Source: Squalus acanthias (Eukaryota). Taken from it: a stretch of DNA of 64,000 nucleotides. The position numbers and the translations under genes are program-made. The notes under the pieces are model-generated. The model saw only the letters and a program-made list of their open reading frames with translations. It was not told the DNA's origin and did not search any database. This document shows, piece after piece, positions 5,369 through 27,457 of this stretch. The stretch covers positions 118,856,001 through 118,920,000 of the forward strand of contig CM059431.1 of NCBI GenBank assembly GCA_030390025.1, written 5' to 3'. Position 1 is the stretch's first letter. Each line of letters opens with the position of its first letter.

Positions 5369-6345
5369 TGTGGTTAGGTGAACCCACACCTTCCCTCTTA
5401 TACTCTAATTCCAGAATCCAACCTGAACCCATCTGGGTGGGGTAAAATGATCAAGGCTCACAACTCAGTACAACTCAGTATTCTTTTAACTGTTTATTGT
5501 ACTACGGATAACACACAAATGTCAATGCACTGATCCCTTTAACTTCAAACAGTACTCACATACACTGTTCCCTTTAACTCTCTTTAATTTCAAACACCGC
5601 TCACTCGGAGGAGTATGTTTCCATCTGTATGGGTGATCAAATCCGTCCGCAGTTCCCTTGCAAGTTGCCGAAGTTTGTCCTTAAACGCACCCTTTTTGTA
5701 ATACAAAGATCATAACCATGACAACTGATTGACGCAACCCCCTCCTTTTAATTGTACCATCTTAATCTTGTTTGTTTCTGCAAATCTATAGAGTACTTGA
5801 TTTGATCACTTCTCTATCCTGGGTCAGTGAATAGTCCATTATCACACAAAGGTGTTTTGATGGGGTCTGAAAGGTTGGCGAATGGGTTTTACTCCAGCAA
5901 CAATTAACATCTCCAAAGGATGAGGGAACCAATTCAGACTCGGTGGAACCATGGTCGTTACCTGTGGTGTTGATTTGTAAGTCTTGTTAACAGCCTGAGC
6001 ACAAGAGTTCAATGGACAGGACAGTCAGTTAAATTTAAACAAACACATGTCATTGTGTGGCCTGATTACTCCAGCTACTTCCTTGGTTAGCATATTCATA
6101 AAGTCAATCAATCGTGTCTGTGACTCTATATGAATAATTTCCTCCTGCATTCCGTTCAGCTCACAGCTTGTCTTAAAAGTTCATCTAAAATTCCCGTTGG
6201 TTCCTTGAGGCATGCTGGGATATGAAGCTTGGTCAATTTCTTATGATTGGTCAATTTACAAAACTGTCTGCACAGTACAGCCGCTTAACCCTTTAATGTC
6301 GGTTTACTTTAAGTTAAGTGCGTTCTTGCTGCAGGACTGGCTACA
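5369..6345 (-). repeat. 3' LTR (977 bp)
   Basis: Direct repeat of 18845-19617 plus 27213-27457; begins TGTGGTTAGG and ends GGACTGGCTACA on the plus strand. Confidence 0.95.
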
Positions 6346-6398
6346 GGAGTCCACCATTAAGTGACTGATGTACTGACTCCTCAGGGAATCAGTCACTT

Positions 6399-8694
6399 TT
6401 AAACCAACTTCTCCTCTTCTTGCTGAACCAAGACCTCACACGTTAACTTTTGCTGTCTCTTCTTCTTCCGCCGTCTTTTCTCCGCCATCGCCAGATATAG
6501 CAAATAGATCACAATGATCAATTGGATTATGACCAATACATGAGACACGATTCTTATCCAAGGATTTATCTCAACTGTAGTTCCCCAATTCCATAATTGT
6601 TTCCACCATGGGATAATTTTGATATTTTGTATGTCTTTCCCCACTTCCCTTTGTCATTGTTTTAATTCCCACAATACATGCTAGGTTACATCAAGATCAT
6701 TCCGTAATTTAGTTATTTTAGCCTGAACTTCGGGTTCAAGTAAATCTATATCAAAGCCAAACTGACTAACAAATTCTTCCATGTTCAAATTAGAGAGTGG
6801 GTCTGATACATCGATACCAGTTTCCTTTCCTAGGTGTAAGGGTTGTAGGATCCCAGGCTCAATGCAAAAGGTTGGTTGTATAACTGGGCATGTCAAATTA
6901 TTTCCATAAATAAAAGATTTTACAGTTGCGGTTACACAATACATTCCATTCCAATTAACAACTCCATGTCTTCCTGATGTAGATTGCGTGGTACAATTTG
7001 CACTCTTCCCAGAGAATCCACACGCTGATCCTTCATGGTCATGTAGTCTATAGGGACAAATGACTGTCTCTCTCACTTGCTGACATCCCACCAGGTCTGT
7101 GGGAATCCATCTATCCGCTCCACTCGCGGAGGCGTTATAGGCTACATAAGGAGCATTGTCTCGGTGCTCTGTTACTATTTGTGTCCCATACAATACATGT
7201 CCAATGTTTTCTACTCTAAACAGGGGATATCCCTGATGGTTTGGAGTTATGAGAGGGAATTTCAACACTATTCCTACCACTGTATCATTAGCAGGACTAT
7301 CACATTTGTGATAAACTACTTGAGCCTTAATCAACCTTCTTAATTTACATATACTCACATTAGGTGAAATTTCATAATCTGTCAATTGTGTTAAGTGTTC
7401 ATTGCTAAGCCAATCAGGTACGTGTCCCTCCTCTAATTTCTCTAAATTATGGCGGGTTTGTTCTACTAACCAACCCCCATACATCATGCACACGTCATTC
7501 TGAGCTGCCTCTGTGCTAGCATTTTGATCTTCCTTGATGAGCTGATCCACCTTTCTAGCAGTATCTAAAATAGGATTAGTAAGTTTTGTTATCAGGTCCT
7601 CGTATAGTTGCTGTTGCGTTAAATTATTTCTTTGCTGTAAGATACTTTTGCTTTTCTGCTTAGCTTTCCTTAATTCACTATTCATTGTTACTAAATCTAA
7701 TCTATTATAAGCCATTCCTGCTGTATTGACTCCCGTCACTATATCATTAATCAAACTCCTTCTCTTCCTCTTTCCTTGTGGGCTTTGGGTCATGACCATG
7801 GCAGTAGATGGAGTAGACCACTTCTCCACTTTTTCATAATGATTTTTAAATCTTTAGATTCTCATGAATCTCCAGTGTCCCCCAAAAATCTTTAACTATT
7901 TGTTGCCACATTTTATCTATAAGCTGTCGGGTGTCTCTTTTATACCAGCTTGGCCACCTTGCCTTGGTCAAATTCAAAATAACTGGAATTATCTGATAAA
8001 GTACGTTTTGATATAAAATCTGATTGGTTGGGACCAATGCCAGGCCATTTTTGGGTCCTGGTATTTGCTTTGAACACTCTGGAGATTTTTGTTGTTTTAA
8101 TTCGGGTGTTTTCTTTGGTGCCGTTTTTAACTGATACATTATTATAGCTTGATAGTTTACTTCTTCTTTACTCACACTCTTTCCTGCTACATTATTCCCA
8201 AACGCACTACGCTCACAATAATATCTGCCTTCGTATTGCTTATTCCAATTCAGCCAACAATAGACTATACCGTCACTCACAGAGTGATTGGTTTCGTACA
8301 ATCTTACAGATACAGCCGGTTCTACATTTAACCTTTCCACACTCGGTTTTCCCGGTGTAGGCGTGAGCAGTACTATGTCTAAGGCACTACGTAATTGAGG
8401 TATTATGTACTTGTTACCATCCCGGGGTGACTCAAAGCTACATTTTACACAAATACGTCTCCTTTCCTTTACCTCTATCACCTTTACCAAAGCTAAATTA
8501 CCCTTGCATCCTGTTGCCCCTTTTTCAGAGCTGTTATTACTGTCAAAAGGACAGGCAAAATACAATTCCTTAGAGTATGTTTCAGCTTCGGCTGTTTTCC
8601 CCAGGTAGGTGACTGTCGATGAGCACCAACCTACTTCGGAGGTCACACTTTCGCACCACACGATTCCCAAGAGAAGTGCTAACACACTCTTCAT
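6399..8694 (-). pseudogene. env: Envelope glycoprotein (class I fusion, F-protein-like), in three broken ORF pieces
   Basis: Signal peptide MKSVLALLLGIVWCES; furin site RKRR/S (7769-7758); fusion peptide then heptad repeat; long Cys-rich ectodomain; TM helix IVSHVLVIIQLIIVIYLLYL; basic tail. Confidence 0.85.
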
Positions 8695-8718
8695 CTTTTC
8701 CTCCTTTTCCCTTTTTCC

Positions 8719-8745
8719 CTGTAAAATAAAATAAACGAAGATTCG
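8719..8745 (-). promoter_or_regulatory. env splice acceptor
   Basis: Minus strand CTTCGTTTATTTTATTTTACAG, ending 24 nt upstream of the env ATG. Confidence 0.6.
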
Positions 8746-9434
8746 CTCTGCGTTGGCCCCTACTACACTATCCAGGCTATGCAGATCCGATTGGTTAAAT
8801 AAGTAACATATTCATTTACAGAATTTACATGCGTGCCCTTGGCATTTATGACTCCTCAAGTTATATTTCAGGCCTCTAGGGATGTAAGACGTTCTGATTG
8901 TCTGACAGTTTATAGAGTTCAGACCCGTGGAACAGACAACACAAAACCCAATGAATCTGTGAAACTTCTTTTACTTAAAAATCAACAAGAGGTTACAAGT
9001 AATTACCAGAATACAAACTGTACTCAATTCATGTACTTATTACAAGCAAACATCTAAAATCATTTACTTTAGGCTCAGGTGATTATAAGCACCACATACG
9101 TACTAACACCAGATGAGAGGTCAATTCAATGATGACTAGACGTATGACTTTAACTGGCAACTGACCAGGTCACCATCGACTGCAGCCCCGAATGTCAGCC
9201 TACAACATCCCTTATACCCCAAAACTTGGCAACTCGCTCACAGCATTCGTGTCCCAAACTGTGTGATTAACGTTGTTTTTCTCTCTCTCCTTCTATCTGT
9301 TTTGACGCTTAGTTAACCAAGGCCAGACATTCAAGGATTGGAGAGTGTCGTTGTTTTCACATTTGCAGGTTGTTGACTCGTGGTTCTCACAGAATTTTCA
9401 AGATCTTATCTTTAGAAGGAAAAATACCAGCACA

Positions 9435-11957
9435 TCATGCTTTAGCCAAGCAGTCTCTTGCCCTCAAAGTTTGTCGGTACACTTGGTAACTTTTCGATTC
9501 AGTCAAGTTTATCATAGACAGTATTACACGGCTAGCGCCCTTTGGGCTCTCTCCCTTTCTGTTGGCACCTCCTGTTGCCATTCTTCGAAGGGCTGGGACT
9601 GATGCTGGTGGCCTTTGTGGCTGTCTCTGTGGCTGTATTACCATAGGTACACCCTCATCTTCCATGGTCCACCATTTTATCATACTCATAACAATCCCTT
9701 CCGCTCTCTGTTGTTTCCTTTGGGGTTTGTACAGTTTAATTTGATTGATGTGGAATCATTTTACCTTCTTGGGTAGTTGTACCGCATATACCAGTGGGCT
9801 AGCTTTTTCCACAATATTATACGGTCTCTTATACAGCGGTTCCAACACTCCTACCCGAGCATAATTCCTTACCATCACCTGTTCCCCCCATGTCCCATTC
9901 CTGTGATTTGTGTGGTTCTAAATTCATTTTATTGGTTTGATGTTTTCTGCCAATATTCTCTGCAATGTCTGCAGAGGTCCTCTAACTGTTTCTTCAGGTC
10001 TCTCACAAATCTGTCCCGAGTTACTTCCTTCTCCTGTCTTTCAGTCAGAACAGGTACCAATAAGTGTACCGGTGTTCTCATAGGTCTCCCTGTCATCAAC
10101 TCATGAGGGGAATACCCTGTTGTATGATAGGTACTCCCCCTAATAGTCATCAACACCAGTGGTAATACTTCATCCCATTTCTTCTTTCATTTAGGGTTCT
10201 ATTCATGTGCACTACAATTCCTGAAGACTGCGGATTATGGCTTACATGCCATTTCCTTTTGATACCCAGCAGTTTCAAAGTCGCTTGCATTACCTGTCCA
10301 GTAAATGACTTCCCTGATTTGATTCCACGATCCGTGGTAGACCCTATCTGGAGAATACCTCCTTCACCAGGAATTTAGCCGTAGTTAGGGCAGTAGCTGC
10401 CTTACATGGAAACGCCTCAACCCATTTGGTGAAGTTATCTACCAGAACTAAACAGTACTTATTCCCTCTGCTGGAAGTTGGGAGGGGTCCTGTAAAATCT
10501 ATCTGCACACACTGCCAAGGCCCTTCTGATCTTCTGGTGTGCCCCAAAGGTGCCTTTCTCCTATGTGGGTCTGGATTATTGGACGCACAAATCAGACAAT
10601 TATGACAAAAATCCTCCACATCTTCTCTCTGATGAGGCCACCATCCCACTGCATTTACTCGTCTCCACGTTTCCTCCACACTAGGATGCCCTGCTCCCGG
10701 TCCCCCATGTACTAATCAGAGAAAATCCAGCCCTTCTTTTATTCCCACTTCAGATCTTCCATAGGGTCCCTCAACAGTCTCCCCCTTTTCTAGTTTGCCT
10801 AACACCTCCCTGCGTACTGGATCCGCCTTTTGCACAACCGTAAGATCATTCTCTCTCACTGGCTCAACTGCTGCCATCATTGCTATTTCTCCCATTCCTT
10901 CCATGGGATGCCAAGGCACTCCTCCTACAGCACCTTTCTTTGCTAGCACGTCTGCTTTCTCATTTCTTTCCCATCTCGGCTCTGCCTTAGAGTGAGCCTT
11001 CACTTTGTGTATAAAATAGTCATATTTCCCTTCATTGTTCCTGATCACCTGATCCTGAGCAACGTCTTCAGCATAGGGCCACTTAAGAGTGGTTTCCCGT
11101 CTGCTGATTTAAATCCTCGCTTTTCCCAAATCGTTAGAAACTCCGTCAGTGAATTACAAACAAACATAGAATCCGAACAGATAGCATATGGTGGTGGGAA
11201 CTCAGTTGGGTGAGTTGCTACATATGCAACAGCAGCCAACTCCGCTTGCTATGCACTCGGATGATTCGATAATTTCAGTGACACGGCTATCTTATTACTC
11301 GGATCCCAAATTCCACATCCTGTCTGCCTTTCTCCCTTTTCCATATAACTGGATCCATCTACAAAGATGTCTCTCCCCTGCGGGAGAATGCCCTTCTTAA
11401 TTCCTTCTTCTATTTCCCACACCCCCTCTACTGCACTTTGATGTGGTTTAACCATGTACCCCATATTTACTGCGAGGGTCGGGTGGTTCAATGGTTCCAC
11501 CTTCAGATCATATGACCCCAATAACACAGTCCATCTACTAATAGTAGGGCTGGACACCGTCCCTTCTTTAATTCTCCCATCTACCAATAATCTCGTCGGA
11601 GTATGTCCCGTTCTCAGGGTTACTGTGGCGGTTCTTGTAAATACAGCAAAGTGTTTAACTGCCCAGTAGGTAGCTAACAGATGTCTCTCACGTGATGAGT
11701 ATGCCATTTCTACCGGAGTTAATGTCCGAGAAGCGTACGCTACTCGTTTCCCATGGGCTGATTGTAACTCACCGCAATATCCTGTCAGTCCTAAAAATGA
11801 TCTTAAAGCCGAAACATCCTCTTTGCCTCATCTATGCCTCTCTCTCCCGGTCTCAGTGTGAGCCCCAAAAATTGTACCTCCTTTTGCCCTATCTATTAGG
11901 GTTTACCTTCAACCCGCATCGCGTTAGGAGCTACAACAACTCCTTCAGCAACACCAT
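9435..11957 (-). pseudogene. pol: pol 3' part: RT thumb, tether (degenerate RNase H), RNase H, integrase, C-terminal extension
   Basis: AYASRTLTPVEMAYSSRERHLLATYWAVKHF; IFVDGSS..AELAAV..SDS..HKVKAH..NEKADVLAK; HHCC (CHNCLIC); WQCVQIDFTGPL; DQGSHFT. Multiple stops and frameshifts. Confidence 0.92.
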
Positions 11958-12156
11958 GGGCTCGATTTTAATTCTCGAGTCGGGTTGTGTGGTGGGCGGG
12001 TTCCGGAGCCGCTTCCGGCGGGATCAGCTGCTGATGTCCGATTTTGATTCAATGAGCTTGTTGATTTCAATGAGGCGCGCTGGCCGGTCCAATGAGTGCG
12101 ATCGAGTCGGCTGGCCACCTCTGATGATGTCATAATAGCTGCTGCTTTTAAAGCTG

Positions 12157-12236
12157 AGAAGTCGCACAACACCAGGTTATAGTCCAACAGTTTTATTTGA
12201 AATCACAAGCTTTCGGAGCTGCTGCCCCTTCGTCAG
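12157..12236 (-). ncRNA. Penelope-like terminal fragment with minimal type I hammerhead ribozyme core
   Basis: Minus strand CTGACGA-A-GGGGC-AGCA-GCTCC-GAAAGCTT, then AATAAA. 13-bp TSD GCTTTTAAAGCTG at 12144-12156 and 12237-12249. Confidence 0.75.
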
Positions 12237-12310
12237 GCTTTTAAAGCTGCCATTCAGCCTAAGCCTTTCTCTTGTGGATTCCTGGACTCATTGAAATTGA
12301 TTTTGATGCA

Positions 12311-14181
12311 ATGAATTCTTCCAGAGGCAAGGCAGCTCCTAGTTTTAATGATGACTTCCTCCATGTTCTTGTTGATGCGGTCAGAGGGCGCAGGGAGATT
12401 CTCTTCCCTCCTGATGACCAGAGGAAGCCTCCTCAGCAGACAAAGGCAGCCTGGCTGCGCATTGCTGAGGAGGTCGGCGCAAGGTCCATATATGCACGCT
12501 CATGGATCCAGTGCCAAAAAGGTTTAATGATCTTGTGCGAACATCAAAACTCCCATCACACTTGCTTTCAATCTGCTTCCCTTCTCTTCTCATCATCAGC
12601 ACTCTGTGTTGTAAGCCTCCTCCTTCACATCCCACCTTACTCTTACTTTCCTTGCACCCTTTCCTATCCATCTCTGTCTCTGTACTGAATCACTTCAGCA
12701 TCCTGCCTATGCACCCCTTAGACTTGCTCTCACTGTCATGCAGTGACAACTAACAACGCACAGGGAGCTACCTTCCTCTTGTCACCTTACCCCATCTTCG
12801 TCTCCCTCAAAGCTTCTATGGTAGAGATTATTGACCCTCACTCTATCACTGTAGCTGATACACCGCTTTTGTCCCTCCTTGCAGGAAAAGATAGCCCACA
12901 ATAAGAGGGAGAGAGCAATGACTGGAGGAGGAACACCTACCCTAGCCATATTGACCAGTGTTGAGGAGGCTGCAAATGAGATTGTTGGCAGTGGCGAGGA
13001 CCTGGAAGTGGGCGATGGAGAGACGGGCACACTAGAGGAAGCTGGTGATATAATAGAGTTTCATTCCTCTCAGAATGCAATGGCATATGATGTTCATAGA
13101 GAATCGAATTGTATCATCTGCTCAAAAGGATGTGTCAGCTACATCAAATATCAGATGTCTAAATCATGCCTTTACTCTCCCACAGGACCATCGAGCGCCC
13201 CCCTCCCCACGATCCAGGATGAAGAGCCGGACATCTCCTCAGAGGAACCTGAAGCCTCTGAGGGAGCAGCGTCACCAGGACTCAGTGCACCCAGCACCAG
13301 CGCAGCATCGCACACCTCGGTGGGGCCCTCGTGAGTTAGAGTAGTGTTGCCAACTGGTCTATCACAGCGCACAAGTGAGCATCAGCAGATGGTGGAGACA
13401 GCGACAGCAGTGGAGAGTCCTCGACGGAGGTCGCAGCAATCTCCTAGCTCTGCTGAGCTTCATGCAGACGCTGTGCCTCTGGGGCCATCCAGAAAAAGAG
13501 CATCTCGGGAAATACAGGAACAAGTGCAGGTGTCTCTGGAAGGGTTTGCCTCCAGGGTTAGTGTGAGTGTGGAGAGAATGGAGGAGTCCATCTGTAACAT
13601 CAGCACTGCCGTGGTGGAGGCAATGGCGCATGAACGCACCACCATGGATAGGATGGCAACCTCAGTGGAAAGGCTGGCTACCTCAGTGGAAAGGATGGCT
13701 ACGGCCATGGAGGAAATAAATCACCAGAGCTCAGGAAAACATGGAGACTGTTCAAAATAAAATGTCATCTCTGGAGGAGCGATGGGCAGCTATTGAACAG
13801 AGAAACCAGAGCTTCATGGACGTCCTTGTTAGGAGGACTGCCAGTGCAGATACGGGTCCTCGTGGCCCCCCTGAAGTGCAGCAATGTCCTCTCCAGGCAC
13901 TTGCCAGCACTGAGGTGCAGTTGACCCATGAGAGGGATGTTGTTGGCAGGACAGAAGGAAGTGTGGGGTCCTCTCAAAGCACTCACACGACCATGCCACT
14001 ACGGAGCCCTCGGTCAGAGACACACTTTGCGGAGACAACTGAGATGGCCATTTCAGCCCCTGCACAGCCGCAGGAAGAGCAGACTCTTGAAGAGCCCTCC
14101 CAGGCTCCCAAACTCAGAGGATGCCTGCCAAAGGCTTTTTTTCTGACTGTTGTTGATTTATTATCCTTTTGTGATGTGTAA
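12311..14181 (+). pseudogene. Harbinger Myb/SANT-like DNA-binding protein, three exons
   Basis: APSFNDDFLHVLVDAV..AWLRIAEEV..RSWIQCQKRFNDL; acceptors before 12885 and 13186, donor at 13045; heptad repeats at ~13644-13710. Confidence 0.8.
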
Positions 14182-15103
14182 AAGAAAAATTATGGCAAAC
14201 AGTTGATTGTGTGGCCTATGTGTTATGGGAGATGGCAAAAGTGCATTGAGGGCTCAGGGCGACTTGCTTTTGTGATGCTGATGGTAAAAGTGATTGGAAA
14301 TAAGAGGGTATAGCAGAGATGATATATGATGTTGGACAAGTGTCGCCTGCAATTACAGAGCCATATGGTGGCCACCTTTGGTTGAAGAGTAAGCTTATGG
14401 TAGTGTGGCATGGCAATGTGCATACCCGCTTGACGGGCAGCAGTGAACTGGAGGGAAGCTGCGTTGGTCACAACAGGGCATGCAAGGCGCCCCTCATCCT
14501 CCTCCTACTCCTCTTCCCAGGAAGATCTGCGCTGAGCCATGCAGCTGCTACTCCTCCGATTATGAGGACCAGGATGAGAGGGCTTAAATGTTTCCCATCC
14601 CCTTGCTATAGATTTCATTTGAGGCAACAAGTTTGCAAGCGCACAGTCGAAGTGGCCTGAAATTATTCCATTCATGTCACACTGCAGATGTGTGTCAGCT
14701 TGAACAGTCACAAGGTCAGTAGATGTGCAAAATCTTATCCCGTACCTACAACAGCAAAGTTGTTGCATTTGAATGTCAGCCATGTTTTAGGGGTGCTTTT
14801 AAAGCGCTCCACCAATGCATACAAATCATGTCCTCCAGCAACTCGTCTCCTTGAACCTGGCCTGTTTCTGACAAGTTGGGAAACAGTAGCCAGGAGCACG
14901 AAAATGGGAAACCACTATGAAAATAGGATTAGCAAGGCAGTTAACAGGCTGTTAACTGCCTTAACTACCTGTCCCGCCGGTTCCAGTCGAGTCAGTTTGG
15001 GAGCGGCTGAACAGACACTCACGAAAATTGGGTGGGTGTCTGAAGCCATTTTTTCCGATTTTCGCTACAGACCCGCCTCCTCAGGGCTATTAAAATCGAG
15101 CTC

Positions 15104-16176
15104 CATATGTTCCTCAGGAGCCTTTGTGAATAGTAACAAGTCATCCATATACTGGACCAGCTTGTCCCTGCCAGAGAACCCTTCGAAACACTAAGCCATT
15201 TGCTGATGGAATACTGATGGACTATTATGAAACCCTTGTGGCAGACATGTCCACGTGTACTGCTGCCCTTTAAAGGTGAAGGCAAATTTGTACTGATCTT
15301 TTCTCATCGGAATAGACCGAAACCCATTAGAAACATCCAGCACAGTGTATACTTCCGCAGAGCTTGGTATGCTGCCAATCAAATCTGCCACAGCAGCGAC
15401 CGTTGTGGCACATGCTGGAATGTTCTTATTTAACACCCTTTAATCGATCGTCATCCTCCATGATCCATCTGGTTTCTTAACAGGCCTAATTGGTGAATTT
15501 ACGTTTGTCGCCAGAGGTCTTAAGACCCCTTGATCCACAGGGACTTTACCGGTACCTCTAAATCCCTCTCTGCTTCTTTGGGGAAATTATATTGCCTCTG
15601 CGGGGTTTTCATAGATACTCCCTCTACTACCACCTCTACTCCTGGTATTCTCCCGCAGTCGTGTTTGTGTTGGGCAAACACCCTCTTCTCCTGCTCTATA
15701 ATGGCTTTACTCCACTCTGGGCTTTTTTTCACTAATGCCTGCCAGTCGTATGCTCCCTTTCCCGAAACCATGCACACCTTTCCTTGCCCATCCAGCAGAA
15801 CACACTGTCCTTCACTGCCCTTCCATAAACAGTGATTAACTAGATCTATCACTATGCCATTTGCTTCCATACAGTCTGATCCCAATACTCCTCTCTCCTC
15901 ATCCCAATTCATTAATATGCGCACCTACTTTGTTCCGAGTGGCCCCACTTGTATACAAAGAGGTTTTGATACCGTGCCAGCCAGTGTATTTCCCGTAAAT
16001 CTTCCCAAAACGTAGGGTTCGCCGATTGACCAATTGGACCTCCGTGGATCCTTCGCGTAGACCACGATATGTGACGCCCTTGTATCTACCAGGTATTCCC
16101 CTTTCTTTCCTTCTACTATTAAATCCACGTTGGGTCTTCCGTGGCTGTCATACCTGAGTGGACACAGGTATGCTAG
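15104..16176 (-). pseudogene. pol: pol 5' part: aspartic protease and reverse transcriptase
   Basis: YLVDTRAS (DTG mutated); NSPIRPVKKPDGSWRMTID; VLDVSNGF; LPQGFHNSP; YMDD at 15151-15140. Confidence 0.93.
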
Positions 16177-18805
16177 CTGGCTGTTACGGCCCCTTCATTG
16201 CTCGGAGGGTGTGAGGGTTCCAGCTTAGGTTCCCCTCCGTCTCCTCCCTTGGAGGAATTACATTTACCTCCAGCCTGGCTTACTACCTTCTCCAAGGCAT
16301 GGGCCAGTCGTACTATTGCATCCTGAAATCCACCACCCCCAGGATTCTTTCTCAGTCCTTCCCTATTCCTCGGCGCGTAGCACTCCCGTGACATACGGCC
16401 GAGTTTCCCACAGTTATAGCATTCACTGCTATCTCTACCTGGTTGGTTACCTACACTGGTTTTTCCCTCGGCTTTGCTCCTTCATATCTCCACTCTCTCC
16501 CCTGGCCCTGTTTAGGGGCCGGGTCTGGAGTTACCTGGGGTTTCATCTCCTGTACTTTTCCTTTCTTCCCCCTTTCTACCTTGCTCCTATCCTGCTTGTC
16601 CTGTTTATCCTCCCAAAACATAATCAACTTCCTCAACACTCGAACTTCTGTCACGCCTGGGTCTCCTACATCAAACCCTGACATGGCTGTATTAGTAACG
16701 GGTTCCGTGCGAGCTAGCAGAGCTCTTAACCAATGGCAGAGACCGTCTCCTGCCAATTGATTCCGATCCAACCCTCCTCCTTGTGTTTAACTATAAACAG
16801 GCCACAATCTGCTAACAAACACTTCTGGGTGTTCCTCCTTCCCCTGCATAGTTTGTGCCGTGATCTTAAATGGATCACCCCTTCCATACCCGCAAGCTTC
16901 TCTAACATGTCGCTTAGTATTGTCCCAAGTTACCACGGGTCGGGCATACTTGGGGGGAAAAATTGGATTGCTTTATGTCTCCCGTTAGCGCCCTAAGAGG
17001 GCGCTAAGGGGGCTCAAAGCAACTAGCGCCCGGGCGCGGTGATGTTTGCACCGCTTGCGAAATTGACCAGACATTTTGTGGCAGCGCTAAACACTACCAT
17101 CACGATCTCCTGCGCCCGCAGATCGTGACGTCAGTTGAGCATGCAACACCCCGCTAGCGCCCCGGACTGGATATTGAGTGGCGCCCACTGCCTTACCGCC
17201 AGCCGCGAACAACAACAGGTTGAGGGGAGCGTTTTGCAGTCGGGAAGGGACTGGGGGAGCACTATTTAAAGGCGACCACTTCCTGCCTTTTTTTGTCGGC
17301 GACATTTTTGCACCATGCATTCTGAGAGAGAGAGAGAGACTTCTGGAGAGATTCAATGCTGTGTGAAGGAGTTTTGGGTACTGAGCAGCACTTTGCAGGT
17401 TCATCTTGATTTGACCTTCCTTGCATCAATTTAGAAGAGACTGTGGGGGCTGCACTCTGAGCTCTTTCCCTGGGCCTCTCCATTGTTCTTTCCCGCAGAT
17501 TTGATGTACAGGTCTCTCCAGGCCGAGATTCAAGGCTGGAGTGAGCAGGATGTGGATGGAAAGCAAGATCGACCCTTCCCTTTAAGAACTGGCCGGCGCC
17601 AGTGTGTCTGTGTTCCATTGCTGACTGACATCACATGAGCTTCGCCAGTGCTCTGAGGTAGCGCCTCGCTCCTCGGCCTTTGCGCCTTAAGACAGGTGTG
17701 TAGCGCCTGATTTAGCGCTCCAATCATCCCCGGGGCAATAGAAGCCAAGTTTGCAGTTGGAGGCGATAATTAGTGCCAGGCACTAAACTTTGCGCCCAGC
17801 CGATAATTGCACCCCAAACGGGGCGATACCAAATTTCTCACGCTTGGTGTCTTCTGGTAGCCCAGCCAGAACCGCCCCATTCAGACTAAAAAGCAAACAA
17901 CTCTTTTTCTCGGATTCGTCAAAACCCTGCATCGCAGCCATCGTTTCTAAGCACAAAAAGTGCCCTTCCACATCTCCTCCCCGTCTGAGAGTTCCTAAAT
18001 CCCTTGCTGCATCCCTTAATTGTGAGGGAGTATAAGCTTCATCATAATTCGACACTACCAGGTCTCCCCCAGCCCCCGGTGTCATTTTCGTGTGTCGTAC
18101 CGGACACATTACTCCTCGCCCTATACTACCACCACCTTTCTCTTCACCTTCCATAACTTCCTCCTCTGCCTTCTTCCACCACGTGTCTAACGCATTCCCT
18201 TCCTCCACGGCCCCTGCCATAGCACAGACTGTACCTCTCTGTATCTGTAGCTTGTGCTGGAGCTGTTCGATCTCTTCCTCGCATGCTGAATGATCAGCAC
18301 ATTTTTCGAGTTCCTTGTGCTGCTCTCGCAGCACCCGGAACGCCGCCTTTAAATCACTACACTCCTGAGACACTCGACTATTTTCTTCCCATTCACTATC
18401 CACTTCTTCCCGCAATTGTCCGCACTGGTGTTGCAAATCAACTGCCTGTACTTCTAGGTAGCTGCACCTTGTCTCCATCTTTTTCCTTTCATCTTCTCTC
18501 TCCTGTCTAGCCTCCAACAATTCTTTCACCAATCTCACTATTTCAGCATCCTTTTCCTGCAGCCTTTCATCCTTCTCCTGCAACCTTTCTTCATATCGCT
18601 GATGTTCCTGCGATTACTTTTGTGTTTTCCACTTATATGTTAACAAACACACAGGTTGTACCCATTTTGGATTTCTCTTGTCCATGGGAGTTTCCTCCCA
18701 TTCCTCAGCTTATTTTGGAGGATCGGACGCAGCCGCGATGACTCGTACCCATCCATCTTTCAAAGATAATTTCTTACCTAAATACTGCTCTACACTATCT
18801 TCCAT
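16173..18805 (-). pseudogene. gag: gag: coiled coil, capsid with MHR-like motif, one zinc knuckle
   Basis: ATG 18805 is in frame with ORF 17783-18583. After MITE removal it reads QGKEEHPEVFVSRL (MHR-like) and CYNCGKLGRMSREC (CCHC with H->R). Confidence 0.85.
16952..17842. mobile_element. Harbinger-type MITE inserted in gag
   Basis: TSD CTT; left end GGGGGGAAAAATTGG; inverted homolog of 25760-26652; removal restores the gag frame (EDTK|YARP). Confidence 0.88.
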
Positions 18806-18819
18806 TTATCCCCTATCAG

Positions 18820-18837
18820 GTCCTTGTTCAGGCGCCA
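18820..18837 (-). promoter_or_regulatory. Primer binding site, tRNA-Lys(UUU)/Lys3 type
   Basis: TGGCGCCTGAACAAGGAC matches TGGCGCCCGAACAGGGAC at 16/18 positions. Confidence 0.85.
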
Positions 18838-18844
18838 CTAAATC

Positions 18845-19617
18845 TGTAGGTAGATGAACCCACACGTTCCCTCTTATACTCTAATTCCAGAATCCGACCT
18901 GAACCCGTCCGGGTGGGGTAAAATGGTCAAGGCTCGCAACTCAGTACAATTCAGTATTCTTTTAACTGTTTATTGTACTACAGATAACACACAAATATCA
19001 ATGCACTTTTCCCTTTAACATCAAACAGTACTCACATACACTGTTCCCTTTAACTCTCTTTAATTTCAAACAGCACTCACCCCGGCGATCACTCGGAGGA
19101 GTATGTTTCCATCTGTACGGGTGATCAAATCTGTCCGCAGTTCCCTTGCAAGTTGCCAAAGTTTGTCCCTAAACGCACCCTTTTTATAATAAAGATCATA
19201 CCCGTGACAATTGATTGACGCAACCCCCACCCTTTGATTGTACCATCTTAATCTTGTCTGTTTCTGCAAATCTGTAGAGTACTTGATTTGATCACTTTTC
19301 CATCCTGGGTCAGTGAATAGTCCATTATCACACAAAGGTGTTTTGATGGGGAAAAGCTCCGGGCTTATCAGCATTCTGAAAGGTTGACGAATGGGTTTTA
19401 CTCCAGCAACAATTTTGATATTTACATCTCCAAAGGATGAGGGAACCAATCCAGACTCGGTGGAACCATGGTCGTTACCTGTGGTGTTGATTTGTAAGTC
19501 TTGTTAACAGCCTGAGCACAAGAGTTCAATGGACAGGACAGTCAGTTAAATTTAAACAAACACATGTCATTGTGTGGCCTGATTACTCCAGCTACTTCCT
19601 TGGTTAGCATATTCATA
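18845..19617 (-). repeat. 5' LTR, U5-R-proximal U3 part (interrupted)
   Basis: Homologous to 5369-~6100. Minus strand has TATAAAAAGGG at ~19188 and AATAAA at ~18975. Confidence 0.95.
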
Positions 19618-20176
19618 GAATCATAGAAAGTTACAGCACGGAAGGAGGCCATTTCGACCCATCATGTCTGCGCCGGCCAACAAAGAGCTATCCAGCCTAA
19701 TCCCGCTTCCCAGCTCTTGGTCCGTAGCCCTGCAGGTTAGAGCCTCCCAAGTGCATATCCAAGTAATTTTTAAATGTGATGAGGGTTTCTGCCTCTACCA
19801 CCATTTCAGGCAGTGAGTTCCAGACACCCACAACCCTCTGGGTGAAAAATTTCCCCTCAAATCCCCTCTAAACCGTCCCCCAATTACTTTAAATCTGTGC
19901 CCCCTGGTTTTTGAACCCTCTGCTAAGGGAAATAGGTCCTTTCTATCCACTTTATCTAGGCCCCTCATAATTTTATACACCTCAATAATGTCTCCCCACA
20001 GCCTCCTCTGTTCTAAGGAAAACAAACCCAGCCTATCCAGTCTTTCCTCATAGCTAAGATTCTCTACTCCCGGCAACATCCTTGTAAATCTCCTCTGTAC
20101 CCTCTCTAGTGCAATCACATCTTTCCTGTAATGCGGTGACCAGAACTGCATGCAGTACTCTAGCTGAGGCCTAACT
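19618..20176 (-). mobile_element. CR1 LINE 3' end (first half of a split, 5'-truncated copy)
   Basis: QFWSPHYRKDVIALERVQRRFTRM. Continues at 26664-27206; TTCATA is duplicated at the LTR junctions. Confidence 0.9.
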
Positions 20177-20992
20177 GAGGGGACGGAGTGCAGATCGGAA
20201 CAGAGTGTTAAGCTGCAAGTTTGATGAGTGAGGGAGTGAATCTTAAAGGTTAATCTCTTTTTTTAATAAAATCTAGTCTTGTGTGCTTGCAATTAGCATT
20301 TAACTTAAATTTAAATTTACTGTTTCAAGTTTTAAGTTTCTTCCAGGCTTGGGCAGGGCTAAGCAAGCTCTGTGCTGGAGAGCAGGTGAGAGTAATTAAT
20401 TAATTAACTGGTCCAATCTGGTTCTGTAACTGCCAGAGAGCTCCCTTATTTAAATCTCAGCCGTATAAAAAAGGGAGGCTAGAGTGCAGTTTGTCACGGA
20501 GTGCAGATCGGAACAGAGTGTTAAGCTGTGAGTTTGGTGAGTGTGGGAGTTCAGGGAGGGAGGTGTTCCTTTATTTTTCTATCTTTGTCAGCTTCCAGGA
20601 GAGCAGGAGCTAAAAAGCTGCACAAGAGGGGACAGAGAACCAGCGGGAGTTCGGCTCTGTGACACCCCCCAAACGCATCTGGAGAAAAATAAAAGTGTGG
20701 TTTAAACAGAGTGCTGCGAGTTGGGAATTGGTTCTTACTTTACACCAAGGAAAGAGTCCGAGAGCGGAAGCAGTCAAACAACAACAAATGCGAAACCGCT
20801 AAAGTGACTTCATAACCAGGGAAGGAGCTGATTGGTAAGTAGGACCTGGTGAGTATTTCTACAGTCCAGTCGTTAAAGTAAAAGTAAGGTCTCTAGTTTA
20901 GAGTAAGTAGTGTTTAAAGGGAAGTAATGTACCTAGTGCATTTAATATTCTTTAATTTAAAGGAAGTAAAGGGAGTAAATTAAGGGTAGGAC

Positions 20993-21920
20993 ATGGCAGG
21001 GCAGCTCGGCATCATGGAGTGCTCCTCCTGTGCTATGTGGGAAGTCAGGGACACTTTTGGTGTCCAGGACGAACACATGTGTAGGAAGTGTCTCCAGCTG
21101 CAGCTACTCGAAATCCACGTTTTGGAGCTGGAGCTGCGGCTGGAGTCACTGTGGAGCATCCGCAAAGCTGAGATCTTCGTGGATAGCACGTTTAATGAGG
21201 TGGTCACACTGCAGGTAAAGAGTGCACAGGCAGACAGGGAATGGGTGACCGACAGACAGTGTAAAAGAACTAGGAAGGTAGTGCAGGAGTCCCCTGGGTC
21301 CATCTCCCTCTCCAACAGATTTTTCCGTTTTGGATACTGCTGGGGGAGATGGTTTCTCAGGGGAATGCAGCAAGAGCCAAGTCCGTGGCACTACGAGTGG
21401 CTCAGCTGCACAGGAGGGGAGGAAAAAGAGTGGGAGAGCAATAGTGATAGGGAATTCTATCGTAAGGGGAACAGATAGATGTTTCTGTGGCCACAGACGT
21501 GACTCCAGGATGGTATGTTGCCTCCCTGGTGCCAGGGTCAAGGATGTCACTGAACGGCTGCAGGGCATTCTGAAGGGGGAGGGCGAACAGTCAGAGGTCG
21601 TGGTTCACATTGGTACCAACGACATGGGTAGAAAGAGGGATGAGGTCCTGCAACAAGAATTTAGGGAGCAAGGTAGCAGATTAAAAAGCAGGCCGTCAAA
21701 GGTTGTAATCTCTGGATTACTCCCGGTGCCACGTGCTAGTGAGTATAGGAATAATAGGATAGAGCAGATGAATGCGTGGCTAAAGAGTTGGTGCAGGAGG
21801 GAGGGCTTTAGTTTCCTGGATCACTGGGTCTGCTTCTGGGGAAGGTGGGACCTGTACAAGCCAGACGGGTTGTACCTGAACCAAAACGGGACCAACATCC
21901 TTGCGGGGAGATTTAAACTA
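20993..21920 (+). pseudogene. CR1 ORF1: zinc finger/leucine zipper plus SGNH esterase
   Basis: CSSC..CRKC followed by leucine heptads; VIGNSIVRG, LPGA, HIGTND, DGLYLN; frameshift at ~21325. Confidence 0.85.
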
Positions 21921-22039
21921 ACTTGGCAGGGGGATGGGATACGGAGTGGAGCTATAGTAGGGGGTGATGCACAGCCAAATATAGATGAAAAAACAAGTCC
22001 GCCTGGAAGGCAGAGCAAATATGTAACGGCACAAGGGAG

Positions 22040-24837
22040 TATGGCAAGGCTGGATGGCATTTATTTTAATGCAAGGAGTCTTGCGAGTAAGGCAGATGAA
22101 TTGAAGGTGTTGATGAACACATAGGAGTATGATATTGTTGCTATCACAGAGACATGGTTGAGGGAGGGGTAGGACTGGCAGCTCAATATTCCGGGGTATA
22201 GAATCTTCAGGCGAGACAGAGGGGGGTGCAAAAGCGGAGGGGGTGTTGCAATATTAATCAAGGAGACAATTACTGCTGTAAGGAGGGATGATATCTTAGC
22301 AGGTTCCTCTAATGAGGCCATATGGGTAGAACTTAAAAACAAAAAGGGGGCAAGCATTTTGCTGGGAGTGTACGATAGGCTCCCAAACAGTCAGGGGCAG
22401 ATAGAGGAACAGATATGTAGGCAAATCTCAGAGAAGTGTAGAAATAATAGGGTAATAATAGTAGGGGATTTCAACTTCCCCAATATTAACTGGGATAGTC
22501 AGAGTGTGAAAGGCTTAGAGGGTATAGAATTCTTAAAGTGCATCCAGGAGAGCTTTTTGAGCCAGCATGTAGAAAGTCCTACAAGAGAGGGGGCGGTACT
22601 GGACCTAATTCTAGGGAATGTAGCCGAGCAAGTGGTAGAAATGTCAGCAGGAGAGCATTTTGGTGACAGTGACCATTATTCGGTGAGATTCAAGGTAGTC
22701 ATGGAAAAGGACAAAGATGGACCGGAAATAAAGGATCTAAATTGGGGGAAGGCCGATTTTAATATGATAAGGCAGGATCTGGCCAAAGTGGACTGGGATC
22801 AGCTACTTGTAGGAAAATCCACATCAGAGCAGTGGGAGTCTTTCAGAAAGGAAATAGAGAGAGTACAACTCCAACATGTTCCCATAAAGGTCAAGGGTGG
22901 GACTAACAAGCCCAGAGAACCCTGGATGTCAAGGGGTATACGAGAATGGATAAGGAAAAAAAGGGAGGCTTTTGGCAGATTCAAAGGACTAAAAACAATG
23001 GAAGCCCTAGAGGAGTATAGAAAGTGCAGGGGGGTACTTAAAAAGGAAATTAGGAGAGCGAAGAGGGGGCATGAAAAAACACTGGCGGGCAAAATAAAGG
23101 AAAATCCCAAGGTGTTTTATAAGTATATTAAGGGCAAGAGGAAATCCAGGGAAAGAGTAGGGCCCATTAGGGACCAAAGTGGCAATCTGTGTGTAGAGCC
23201 AGAAGATGTAGGTGGGGTTTTAAATGAATATTTTGCATCTGTGTTCACTGTGGAGAAGGATGATGTAGGCATAGAATTCAGGCAGGGGGATTGTGATATA
23301 CTTGAACAAATTAGTATTGAGAGGGAGGAAGTACTAGCGGTTTTAGCGGGCTTAAAAGTGGATAAATCCCCAGGCCCAGACGAGATGTATCCCAGGCTGC
23401 TGTGTGAGGCAAGGGAGGAGATTGCAAGGGCTCTGACACAAATTTTCAGAACCTCTCTGGCCATAGGGGAGGTGCCAGAGGACTGGAGAACAGCTAATGT
23501 AGTACCATTATTCAAGAAGGGTAGCAGGGATAAACCAGGGAATTACAGGCCAGTGAGCCTAACATTATTGGAAAAAATTCTGAGGGACAGAATTAGTCTC
23601 CACTTGGAGAGGCAAGGATTAATCAAGGATAGTCAGCATGACTTTGTCAGGGGGAGATCATGTCTGACCAATTTGATTGAATTTTTCGAGGGGGTGACTA
23701 GGTGTTTGGATGAGGGTAGTGCAGTTGATGTAGTCTACATGGACTTCAGTAAGGCTTTTGACAAAGTCCTGCATGGGAGACTGGTCAAGAAGGTAAGAGC
23801 CCATGAGATCCAGGGCAATTTGGCACATTGGATCCAAAATTGGCTTAGTGGCAGGAGCCAGAGGGTGATGGTCGAAGGTTGTTTTTGTGACTGGAAGCCT
23901 GTGTCTAATGGTGTACCGTAGGGATCGGTGCTGGGTCCTTTGCTGTTTGTAGTGCACATTAATGATTTAGATATGAATGTAGGAGGTATGATCAGTAAGC
24001 TCGCAGATGACACGGAAATTGGTGGAGTGGTAAATAGCAAGGAGGGAAGCGTCAGGCTACAGGACGATATAGATGGGTTGGTTAGATGGGCAGAACAGTG
24101 GCAAATGGAATTTAACCCTGAAAAGTGTGAGGTGATGCATTTTGGGAGGACTAACAAGGCAAGGGAATACAATGAATGGTAGAACCCTAGGAAGGACCGA
24201 GGATCAGAGGGACCTTGGTGTGCATGTACATAGATCCCTGAAGTCAGCAGGATAGGTAGATAAGGTGGTTAAAAAGGGATATGGGATACTTGCCTTCATT
24301 AGCCGAGGCATAGAATATAAGAGCAGGGAGGTTATGATGGAGCTGTACAAAACGCTAGTTAGGCCACAGCTGGAATACTGTGTGCAGTTCTGGTCGCCAC
24401 ACTATAGGAAGGAAGTGATTGCATTGGAGAGGGTGCAGAGGAGATTCACCAGGATGTTACCTGGGCTGGAGCGCTTCAGCTATGAAGAGAGACTGGACAG
24501 GCTGGGGTTGTTTTCCTTAGAGCAGAGAAGGCTGAGGGGGGACCTGATTGAGGTGTACAAAATTATGAGGGGCATAGATAGGGTAGATAGAAAGGAACCT
24601 TTCCCCTTAGTAGAGGGGTCAAAAACCAGGGGGCATAGTTTCAAGGTAAGGGGCAGGAGGTTTAGAGGGGATTTGAGGAAAAACTTTTTCACCCAGAGGG
24701 TGGTTGGAATCTGGAACTCACTGCCTGAAAGGGTGGTAGAGGCAGGAACCCTCACAACATTCAAGAAGCATTTAGATGAGCACTTGAAACGCCATAGCAT
24801 ACAAGGCTACGGACCAAGTGCTGGAAAATGGGATTAG
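22040..24837 (+). pseudogene. CR1 ORF2: APE endonuclease plus reverse transcriptase
   Basis: YFNARSL, VGDFNFP, SDH, KSPGPD, NYRPVSLT, YMDFSKAFD, LADD; in-frame stops and a frameshift. Confidence 0.93.
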
Positions 24838-24909
24838 AATAGACAGGGCTTGATGGCCGGCGCGGACACGATGGGCCGAAGGGCCTCTTTCTGTGCTGTA
24901 TAACACTAT

Positions 24910-25748
24910 GGGCTGGATTTTGTGGTTGGAGTCGTGTTGGGGTCGGGAATCACACATTCTGGCTTGTCAACCCGCCTCCAACAAGATGTGGCCAACCCAC
25001 TGTATTTTCCCTTGATTGACCTTGTTGAGCCCACCCAGTGGGCTCAGCAGGCCAATTAAGGGCCACCCGGCAACAGGTGACGTCACAGACTGACATTTCA
25101 TCTGTCAAGAGCTTTTGACAGATGAAATATCAGCATTTGACAGCTCTGTAAAGCTGTCAAACACTCACAATATGATTTCTAACTTCAGTCCTTCCTTTCA
25201 GGCTGAGTTAGAAATCATTCCAACACATAAAACAGAAGGCTGCTGTTTTTGACAGGTCCACGGCTTTCCTGCTTTCTGTGCCGGTGAGATTTCTAACTCC
25301 CGAGAACTGAAGGGCTGACACCTGCAGGAGGAAGTTAAGGTAAGTAAAACTTTTTCCAACACTTAGCACTTACCTTACACACTTACCTCTGCACACATGC
25401 ACCCATCACTCACCTGCCCACCGGACATATCGACCCCTCCAACCCCTGCAGACCCACGGCCCGACCCAATATCTTGGAGTGTTTGCCACCTGTCGGGAAG
25501 CCCACACTTTTCTTTTAAAAATAAAGTTTTTCCAAAACACTGCCTGTTAACAACCTGTTAACAGGCAGTTAATTGTCACTAATCCCTTCCCGCCTCAGGG
25601 AGTCGGGTCTCAGACCAGGTCGGGTACCCGCCGCCAGAGAAACTGGCATGGAGACGGGTTGGAGTCGGGATGGGGTCGGGACCCCCGACTCTGCAACTTT
25701 AACCCCCGCCTCCAAACCCGACTCCACAGGTCATTGAAAATCCAGCCC
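24910..25748. mobile_element. Harbinger-type MITE
   Basis: Perfect TIR GGGCTGGATTTT / AAAATCCAGCCC; TSD TAT. Confidence 0.88.
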
Positions 25749-25759
25749 TATGACTCTAT

Positions 25760-26652
25760 GGGGGAAAAATTCAGTCGCGCCCCGTTTGGGGCGCAAATAT
25801 CGTCCGGGCGCAAAGATTAGCGCCTGGCGCTAATTATCGCCACTGACTGGAAACTGCACTTTTAACGCCCCGGGAGGTGATTGGAGTGCTAAATCAGGCG
25901 CTGCACACCTGTCTTAAGGCGCAAAGGCCGAGGAGTGAGGCGTTAACTCAGAGCGCTGGCGAAGCTCATGTAATGTCAGTCAGCAATGGAACACACACAC
26001 AATGGCACGGGCCAGTTCTTAAAGGGGATGGTTGATCTTGCTTTCCATCCACATCCTGCTCATTGCAGCCTTGAATCTCGGCCTGGAGAGACCTGCACAT
26101 CAAATCTGCTGGAAAGAACAATGGAGAGCACCAGGCAAAGAGCTCAGAGTGCAGCCCCCACACTCTCTTCTAAATCGATACAAGGAATGGTAAATCAAAA
26201 TGAACCTGCAAAGTGCTGCTCAGTACCCAAAACTCCTTCACACAACGTTGAATCTCTCCAGAAGTCTCTCTCACTCTCTCTCAGAATGCGTAGTTCAAAA
26301 ATGGCACCAACAATAAAAGGCAGGAAGCGGTCACCTTTAAATAGCATTCCCCCTTTCCCTTCATGACAGAAGAACGCTCCTATCAACCTGTCGTTGCTAG
26401 TGTCAGGCGGTAAGGCAGGGGGCGCCACTCAATATCCGCTCCGGGGCGATACCGGGGCGTTGCACACTCGTCTGACGTCACGATCTGCCGGCGCAGGAGA
26501 TCGTGGCGGTAGTGTTTAGCGCCGCCGCAAAATGTCTAGTTAATTTCGCGAGCGGCGCAAACTTCGCCGCGCCCGGGCGCTAGCTGCTTTGCGCCCCATT
26601 AGCGCCCTCTTAAGGCGCTAACGGGAGGCGCAACCAACTGAATTTTTCCCCC
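25760..26652. mobile_element. Harbinger-type MITE
   Basis: Perfect 16-bp TIR GGGGGAAAAATTCAGT; TSD TAT; second copy at 16952-17842. Confidence 0.92.
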
Positions 26653-26663
26653 TATAACTCTAT

Positions 26664-27206
26664 AACTAGTGTTTTATACAGTTAAAGCATAACCCCCCTG
26701 CTCTTGTATTCTATGCCATGGCTAATAAAGGCAAGCATTCTGTATGCCTTCTTAACCACCTTATCCAGCTGGCCTGCTACCTTCAAGGATCTGTGGACAT
26801 GCACTCCAAGGTCCCTTTGTTCCTCTACACTACTTAGTGTCCTACCATTTAATGTGTATTCCCTTCCCTTGTTAGCTCTCCCCAAATGCATTACCTCACA
26901 CTTCTCCGGATTGAATTCCATTTGCCACTGTTCTGCCCACCTGACCAATTTATTGATATCTTCCTGCAGTCTACAGCCATCTTCTTCAGTATCAACCATA
27001 CAGCCGATTTTAGTATCACCTGCAAACTTCTTAATCATAACCCCTATATTCAAGTCTAGATCATTGATATATACCACAAAAAGCAAGGGACCTCGTACTG
27101 AGCCCTGCGGAACCCCACTGGAAACAGCCTTCCAGTCACAAAAACACCCATCAACCATTACCCTCTGCTTCCTGCCTCCGAGCCAGTTTTGAAGCCAACT
27201 TGACAC
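26664..27206 (-). mobile_element. CR1 LINE RT fragment (second half of the split copy)
   Basis: SGVPQGSVRGPLLF..FAGD; colinear with 19618-20176. Confidence 0.9.
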
Positions 27207-27212
27207 TTCATA

Positions 27213-27457
27213 AAGTCTATCAATCGTGTCTGTGTCTCTGTATGAATATTTTCCTCCTGCATTCCGTTCAGCTCACAGCTTGTTTTAACAGTTCATGTAA
27301 TAGTCCCGTTGGTTCCTTGAGGCATGCTGGGATATGAAGCTTGGTCAATTTCTTATAATTGGTCAGTTTACAAAACTGCCTGTACAGTACAGCCGCTTAA
27401 CCCTTTAATGTCGGTTTACTTTCAGTTAAATGCGTTCTTGCTGCAGGACTGGCTACA
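27213..27457 (-). repeat. 5' LTR, distal U3 part
   Basis: Homologous to ~6101-6345; ends GGCTACA followed by the TSD CCAT. Confidence 0.95.

Follow-up and report, generated by a model that had tools for sequence, protein, structure and literature searches.

The question raised by this locus is which kind of retrovirus left the provirus found in a 64,000-nucleotide stretch of the Squalus acanthias genome (GCA_030390025.1, contig CM059431.1, positions 118,856,001 to 118,920,000; hereafter the window), and whether it was a lokiretrovirus. The element, at 5365..27461 on the minus strand, is a genuine provirus and a dead endogenous retrovirus (ERV). It probably belongs to the clade of snakehead retrovirus (SnRV) within the canonical retroviruses (the SnRV-like clade; clade Huo, or class III in the broad sense), and was deposited in an elasmobranch germ line with an envelope protein (Env) of the F type. 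The gene order along the element is gag, protease, reverse transcriptase (RT), tether, RNase H, integrase (IN) and env. Its features are the following.

5365..5368, unstranded, target-site duplication CCAT, left copy; 4-base repeat matching the right flank.
5369..6345, minus, 3' long terminal repeat (LTR), 977 bases; TGT..ACA read on the plus strand.
6346..6360, minus, polypurine-tract region, decayed; G-rich in four sister copies.
6401..6680, minus, env C-terminus: membrane-proximal part with stops, transmembrane helix (about 6551-6491), basic tail; matches the ends of relatives.
6681..7850, minus, env fusion-subunit frame, 389 residues, furin-type RKRR at about 7769-7758; F-type (class Ib) by profile and fold searches.
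7849..8694, minus, env surface-subunit frame, 282 residues, signal-peptide-like start, possible Ig-like domain (a lead); out of frame with the remaining env here.
8719..8740, minus, pyrimidine tract and AG resembling a splice acceptor, about 25 bases 5' of the env ATG; seen in the sequence, putative function.
9435..10712, minus, IN and Pol C-terminus, frameshifted, one stop; H2C2 E=7.5e-13, rve E=9e-7.
10960..11380, minus, RNase H, broken; Pfam E=0.046 on the C-terminal piece, N-terminal motif seen.
11450..11752, minus, tether (degenerate first RNase H); RT_RNaseH E=2e-12.
11753..11957, minus, what remains of the RT C-terminus, lacking about 205 bases near 11767.
15104..15586, minus, RT fingers and palm, LPQGFHNSP and YMDD, two stops; RVT_1 E=3.5e-22.
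15836..16176, minus, protease, damaged; E=9e-18 to a related Pol.
16173..16948, minus, gag C-half, presumed capsid C-terminal part, one zinc knuckle (about 16424-16380), weak, E=0.003.
17846..18805, minus, gag N-half, coiled-coil-like stretch, two stops; Pfam coiled-coil families below cut-off.
18820..18837, minus, primer-binding site (PBS), tRNA-Lys3-like; starts 7 bases past the 5' LTR end.
18845..19617, minus, 5' LTR, inner part; LTR-LTR match.
27207..27457, minus, 5' LTR, outer part; LTR-LTR match.
27458..27461, unstranded, target-site duplication CCAT, right copy; matches the left flank.

A first-pass annotation, made from the sequence alone, had listed the paired LTRs, the CCAT duplication, a Lys3 PBS, a coiled-coil Gag, an RT with YMDD, two RNase H-like domains followed by IN, and an F-like Env, and all were recovered, the PBS in part: a PBS-like 18-mer is present, with two mismatches against the presumed tRNA-Lys3 site (one sister copy matches it in full). 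The same annotation had called the provirus complete after removal of four insertion blocks, leaving about 10.5 kb. Subtraction of the insert lengths does give about 10.45 kb (arithmetic only), but RT lacks about 205 bases, no gene is intact, and the inserted DNA amounts to six elements in three places.

Affiliation was assessed on RT. A search retained 17 proteins from 187 candidates: unnamed records with 51-72% identity, frog and coelacanth Pols with 48-61%, annotated as 'NYNRIN-like' or similar, and P0040 with 47%. The last is SnRV, in agreement with the SnRV row of Dataset S2 of PMC7947760 and with a viral record of 10,688 bases, which is the length reported for SnRV. The phylogenetic tree comprised 47 sequences and 265 columns (LG+F+G4), with 142 residues contributed by the window. 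The window and relatives from its own genome grouped with the frog and coelacanth Pols (89.6/84, SH-aLRT/UFBoot) and then with SnRV (92.8/89; FastTree support 0.94). As in the published frame, lokiretroviruses and retroviruses were joined at 98.6/99, with lokiretroviruses splitting first, weakly (13/55 for the remainder). RT identity of the element was 51% to SnRV, 37-41% to foamy viruses and 35-36% to lokiretroviruses, and 24 of 24 lokiretrovirus RT rows carry PFG at the position of LPQGFHNSP. Grouping of the family with three true lokiretrovirus RTs was rejected (65 log units worse, approximately unbiased (AU) test p=0.002); grouping with foamy viruses, mammalian ones only, was rejected by AU (p=0.007, 34 log units) with an SH p of 0.08. 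The constrained trees for these tests were built by fast search. Unlike what would be expected of metaviruses (Ty3/Gypsy), the RT did not fall among that group, and the RNase H is dual, not single. RT comparison thus points to a position inside the canonical retroviruses, in the SnRV-like clade and outside the lokiretroviruses.

Tree references were drawn from viral and metagenome scans, with three loci agreeing with published lokiretrovirus rows. The labels MuLV, FLV, KoRV, REV, WDSV, BFV, EFV, FFV, SFV and SnRV were assigned by match to published rows; the alpha, beta, delta, lenti, gypsy and caulimo labels were assigned presumptively, by motif. Omitted were 23 of the 29 own-genome RT loci and the short fragments P0041-P0046, while the sets of 69 caulimo/gypsy and 34 gamma/foamy/delta loci were thinned to representatives. 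The YMDD of this copy is atypical of its family, with YVDD in 28 of 29 related loci of the same genome.

Env was characterized from its two main frames. The 282-residue frame is the surface subunit, as shown by four full-length relatives that align with its end and by one sister copy in which both parts share a frame. About 55 bases separate the end of the env frame from the LTR. A search of 1.84 billion representatives with the 389-residue frame yielded 25 relatives with E no higher than 0.001. Among the first 10 match clusters looked up, nine were named (seven sharks and two frogs) and one was unnamed; three further named ones were sharks. These mostly shark relatives agree with the shark or ray genome supposed by the first-pass annotation, as does the LINE inside the 5' LTR described below.

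Homology of this Env to F-type (class Ib) fusion proteins is shown by profile, Foldseek, BFVD, Atlas and hhalign results, moderate weight being given to the modelled fold. A family Env profile searched against 241 reference frames gave 60 and 55 bits on lokiretroviruses, 24 on walleye virus, up to 19 on foamy viruses and 3 on SnRV; the corresponding hhalign values were P=97 (275 columns), 89 (174 columns), 88 and 42. Gamma, delta, beta, alpha and reversed lokiretrovirus Envs gave P of 3 or less, and hhalign found no direct match among the lokiretrovirus, foamy, SnRV and walleye Envs. Being deeper than the others, the family profile has an advantage in appearing as the hub. A shark-only profile (eight rows, the window and seven named shark proteins) gave 29.6 bits on lokiretroviruses and 25.5 on foamy viruses, with 0.6 for the best decoy (202 decoys, 125 scored). 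A frog-type profile of three rows gave 50 bits on lokiretroviruses and less than 6 on all else, and with a single lokiretrovirus Env as query, frog-type members were recovered at E=3e-10 (set size about 250). The window's Env alone found foamy Envs (E about 0.001) and no lokiretrovirus Env. Additionally, a frog Pol of the clade runs into sequence 48% identical over 107 residues to the start of one Env of the family.

The best sequence match of Env among solved structures was foamy gp130 (E=0.12, collinear over about 200 residues, with shared cysteines). A monomer model built from a 16-row alignment gave, with Foldseek, foamy Env 8rm1 (E=3e-5), respiratory syncytial virus (RSV) F (7.8e-4) and human metapneumovirus (hMPV) F (1.1e-3), two matches lying below 0.001; ranks 1-10 were all foamy Env, RSV F or hMPV F, for a low-confidence model. 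BFVD returned RSV F (2.4e-4), and Atlas returned Baculo_F (0.94) and Fusion_gly (0.92) at low recognition. The Env profile gave nothing under E=0.5 against PDB sequences, PF00523 had no match in the window's own Env, and the wide fold search (VIA) yielded coiled-coil matches only (Z up to 6.3, uninformative). A Pfam match to Baculo_gp64 (E=0.042) was taken as chance. The surface subunit folded alone was unusable (pLDDT 33), and no longer homologues were found for it. An Ig-like head on this subunit is a lead only: Atlas gave 0.88, V-set gave E=0.045 in one relative, and, of 14 loci examined, 12 showed the cleavage site and 4 of these have GxYxC upstream of it. Mean hydropathy of the segment after the cleavage site was 0.39 (a decayed copy; relatives 0.39-1.04) versus 1.84-1.96 in lokiretroviruses, so the fusion peptide may not be of lokiretrovirus form.

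Two further records touch this Env family. The env frame of a walleye dermal sarcoma virus-like record (L110, an epsilonretrovirus) matches the family profile, hinting that the walleye epsilonretrovirus Env might also be class Ib. A sawshark 'Niban 1-like' protein (P0024) contains about 100 residues of the family (39%), which may have come from a fused gene model or from capture.

Several observations weigh against the affiliation proposed here. UFBoot at the SnRV node is 89, under the customary 95, the branch leading to SnRV is long, and the tree, with its short window RT, was built without ERV-L/ERV-S, Odin, fish foamy-like elements or CmiERV. The Env model is weak (pLDDT 55, pTM 0.33, TM-scores 0.17-0.34), and SnRV's own Env matches weakly. 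IN is 40% identical to lokiretroviruses and 31% to SnRV; the tether is 41% identical to lokiretroviruses, 23% to SnRV and 9-16% to foamy viruses. SnRV also has another tRNA's PBS, 1 base from the LTR. In the IN tree, lokiretrovirus IN is nested among the window, coelacanth and frog INs at 98.5/99, with two lokiretrovirus INs sampled and CGIN1 not in the tree. Finally, the best match of the CR1 ORF2 (63%, P0060) is labelled as the bacterium Carnobacterium and lies on a 3 kb contig; it is probably vertebrate contamination of that assembly.

The best surviving alternative, though rather unlikely, is that the element is a mosaic, in which an SnRV-type gag, protease and RT were combined with a tether, IN and env passed to or from lokiretroviruses; the CGIN1-like integrase of lokiretroviruses could then have come from this lineage. 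It is compatible with membership of the SnRV-like clade, and differs in the origin of the lokiretrovirus likeness. The nested IN, the frog-type Env profile and the 'NYNRIN-like' annotation of relatives favour it, together with the placement of lokiretrovirus IN beside CGIN1/NYNRIN in PMC7947760. On the other hand, the AU tests on IN rejected neither the RT-like topology (p=0.08) nor family monophyly without lokiretroviruses (p=0.17), the RNase H and tether trees were poorly resolved (the RNase H tree omits the window, whose piece was too short), and shared ancestral states can cluster slowly evolving lineages. IN and tether may thus have been exchanged with lokiretroviruses. The dual RNase H, tether plus RNase H, is to our knowledge common to all retroviruses.

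It is improbable that the sharks, coelacanth and frogs form a separate deep canonical lineage to which SnRV is loosely attached. The support for the clade without SnRV and the differences of SnRV in IN, tether, PBS and Env speak for such a lineage; published trees, however, already join a chondrichthyan member with SnRV, so this reading would alter what the group is called and leave its make-up as it is.

A foamy-like ERV of cartilaginous fish is very improbable. Its 4-base duplication would fit, and the best solved-structure matches are foamy for RT (E=1e-26) as for Env. We know of no solved structure for SnRV, and foamy viruses are therefore the nearest RT and Env structure match by default. 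The AU result, from a tree without fish foamy-like elements, the Gag zinc knuckle, the lack of a long accessory region between env and LTR and the low tether identity all stand against it.

Least probable of all is a lokiretrovirus proper, with the host range of that group, in or near which the first-pass annotation had placed the element, extended to cartilaginous fish: the Env profile scores highest on lokiretrovirus Env, IN and tether are nearer to lokiretroviruses than to SnRV and RNase H is dual, but the RT motif and AU test set the element apart from that group, no strongly hydrophobic fusion peptide is evident in this decayed copy, Gag has one weak zinc knuckle where scanned lokiretrovirus Gag has none, and the protease gave no match to lokiretrovirus protease.

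An SMC-like coiled-coil Gag had also been offered as a lokiretrovirus trait, which does not hold: SnRV Gag likewise has a coiled coil and a single zinc knuckle, and smc is described in PMC7947760 as an extra gene in some lokiretrovirus genomes, one that a member need not have. The Pfam scan gave no SMC match in Gag, no separate smc ORF was found in the window, and capsid homology of Gag was looked for and not shown. The supposition that cartilaginous fish lay outside the reported host range agrees with Fig. S1 of PMC7947760 (Wang and Han 2020), in which lokiretroviruses are absent from 6 of 6 chondrichthyan genomes screened. The lokiretrovirus RT motif, searched as a DNA pattern, had 8 matches in the 3.7 Gb of the Squalus genome and 0 in the control; these may or may not be true lokiretroviruses. 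Three lokiretrovirus loci (L116, L121, L124) were seen in metagenome records, presumably as fish host DNA, one with gag, pol and most of env.

An SnRV-clade provirus in an elasmobranch implies the following course. A retrovirus of this clade would have entered the germ line, with reverse transcription presumably primed on tRNA-Lys3, as retroviral biology suggests, and integration with a 4-base duplication. Env would have been made from spliced RNA with an acceptor near 8719 and cleaved at RKRR, probably by furin. An N-terminal, possibly Ig-like, domain may have bound the cell, and the membranes may have fused by foamy/pneumovirus-F-like refolding, as proposed for foamy Env in PMC11468914. The integration itself, with its 4-base duplication, can be read from the sequence, as can the later decay of the copy and the insertion into it of Harbinger transposons and CR1 LINEs.

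Of 975 aligned sites, 50 differ between the two LTRs, 33 by transition and 17 by transversion (Kimura two-parameter distance 0.053). The corresponding age is 12 million years at a rate of 2.2e-9, 53 at 0.5e-9 and 121 at 2.2e-10; it is uncertain by a factor of ten, set by the rate chosen. The rate of 0.5e-9 was applied to a catshark in PMC10699275, and that of 2.2e-10 comes from PMC4422223. In an LTR search of the same genome, 40 of 204 candidates were scored and yielded 63 matches, full-length copies being 84-90% identical. Twenty loci were excised for inspection, the window's own included: 6 of 20 are solo LTRs with an exact 4-base duplication, 4 of 20 have a PBS after the LTR, and 5 of 20 the purine-tract region before it.

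The LTR-to-PBS gap (18838-18844) is 7 bases, as in three sister copies, and 6 in one more; the G-rich tract ends about 4 bases short of the 3' LTR. Both gaps exceed those of SnRV, a hint that the DNA had long ends before integration. A 35-base unit (LTR positions 157-211) is tandemly expanded in some copies (G000:C1:262012450-262014032, C1:114901411-114902680 and C14:37344256-37345390). No tRNA or Rfam family was found in the region scanned.

Decay is extensive. Two sister copies retain the roughly 205 bases of RT thumb and connection that are gone here. Against a natural relative, pol is split into 7 frame pieces with 7 stops within the aligned parts; stops occur in gag and env too, env is frameshifted near 7850, and the protease motif, zinc-knuckle motif and polypurine tract are all damaged. 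The six nested elements lie at three sites, in RT, gag and the 5' LTR.

11958..15103, plus, insert 1, Harbinger-like DNA transposon remnant inside RT; terminal inverted repeats, 3-base duplication CAT, Myb/SANT domain.
16952..17842, unstranded, insert 2, non-autonomous Harbinger-like element inside gag; 3-base duplication CTT, 87% identical to 25764-26652.
19618..27206, unstranded, insert 3, block of long interspersed nuclear elements (LINEs) inside the 5' LTR; duplication TTCATA.
19618-20176 and 26663-27206, minus, insert 3, truncated CR1-type LINE, split by the second LINE.
about 20177-26662, plus, insert 3, long CR1-type LINE interrupting the first.
about 24909-25750 and about 25759-26654, insert 3, two Harbinger-like non-autonomous elements in the tail of the long LINE.

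The CR1 ORF2 is 52-57% identical to Scyliorhinus, Hypanus, Heterodontus and Mobula entries versus 37-42% to turtle and bird ones. The CR1 ORF1 (20990-22124), of ordinary CR1 type, begins with a zinc-finger-like segment and carries a GDSL esterase domain (E=2e-11). Downstream, 29200-64000 is dense in Harbinger-type transposon remnants in both orientations, with CR1 fragments between and Myb-like frames; DDE_Tnp_4 was found at 36357-36737 and 41569-42282. Between the end of Pol and env, about 600 bases (8810-9430) hold no open frame of 100 residues and may represent an accessory gene that has decayed.

The lineage is abundant in its own genome (3.71 Gb), with 12,620 RT and 8,369 Env first-look candidates, 150 and 106 of which were scored. 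A much larger, apparently younger related family was also seen (RT about 75% identical, Env 35-42%), with 21 of the 150 scored RT matches in frames of at least 1000 residues. In a sequencing-run index, 20 of 23 rows held part of the env stretch under 8 organism labels, at a share of at most 0.46, which has no bearing on range; no RNA run was among the rows listed as carrying it.

As for the prior record, the first-pass annotation had asked whether the family was already catalogued in this host group, and at the level of the Pol clade it is; the Env type is what differs. According to published work, elephant-shark lineage I (CmiERV) clusters with SnRV (Han 2015, PMC4422223), clade Huo infects all major vertebrate lineages (PMC6001957), SnRV-like elements are the main coelacanth ERVs (PMC4977317), and a vertebrate ERV analysis is to be reported elsewhere (bioRxiv 2023.10.26.564294). 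The pairing of an SnRV-clade Pol with an F-type Env was not found in the literature searched, outside which lie Hayward 2015, Calcraft 2024, Wang/Chen/Cui 2023, Marco and Marin 2009, and Repbase.

With the lokiretrovirus host-range claim fallen and SnRV-like ERVs already known in cartilaginous fish, what remains of note is Env: a canonical SnRV-clade retrovirus whose Env profile reaches lokiretrovirus, foamy and walleye virus Envs bears on the origin of retroviral Env. Since the elephant-shark member has a gamma-type Env, Env has apparently been exchanged within the Pol clade. F-type Envs had earlier been described in lokiretroviruses; in PMC11468914, orthoretroviral Env is classed apart as class Ia and foamy Env is class Ib by structure. 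It is conceivable, and offered here tentatively as something short of an even chance, that an F-type (class Ib) Env was ancestral to all retroviruses, that the shark, frog and coelacanth lineage changed slowly, and that class Ia Envs are later replacements. The family Env would then link by sequence the lokiretrovirus, foamy, walleye epsilonretrovirus and, weakly, SnRV Envs, and one gamma-type replacement would be visible inside the Pol clade, in CmiERV lineage I. Of the four scenarios among which PMC7947760 does not decide, such a history would single out 1 or 3, and it would overturn the statement in PMC9040795 that lokiretrovirus Env has no detectable similarity to canonical retroviral Env and a separate origin. 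The abundance of the lineage gives the sequence depth to test whether the F-type Env is ancestral.

Compared with known systems, the element is closest in Env fold to foamy gp130 (class Ib; PDB 8rm1, 8ozh). It lacks the foamy leader peptide and large receptor-binding domain, and its RT, Gag and layout are not foamy. Foamy viruses carry accessory genes between env and the 3' LTR, and their Gag has no zinc knuckle, unlike this element on both counts.

Lokiretroviruses share the F-type Env with an RxKR site, homologous by profile, with a coiled coil and transmembrane helix, as well as the dual RNase H and perhaps a CGIN1-like IN. They differ in an RT of the lokiretrovirus clade and in the smc gene of some members; the present element has a weakly hydrophobic post-cleavage segment and a longer surface subunit with a possible Ig-like head.

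SnRV, treated with its clade in PMC12193657, PMC6001957 and PMC4977317, groups with the element on RT, shares the Gag coiled coil with a single zinc knuckle, and has a genome near 10.7 kb. Its Env frame spans 1134 residues, includes a long tail and resembles the present Env only weakly. A clear 3' accessory ORF is not seen in the shark element.

CmiERV lineage I shares the cartilaginous-fish host, the RT signature LDISNGF...LPQGFHNSP (by eye, scaffold 2), a charged, repeat-rich Gag with one zinc knuckle, and LTRs of about 1 kb. Its PBS is a different one and close to the LTR, whereas here a Lys3-like PBS lies 7 bases away. Its Env carries LQNRxxLD and CX6CC (by eye), which we take to be marks of the gamma type, in contrast to the F-type Env of the Squalus acanthias provirus.

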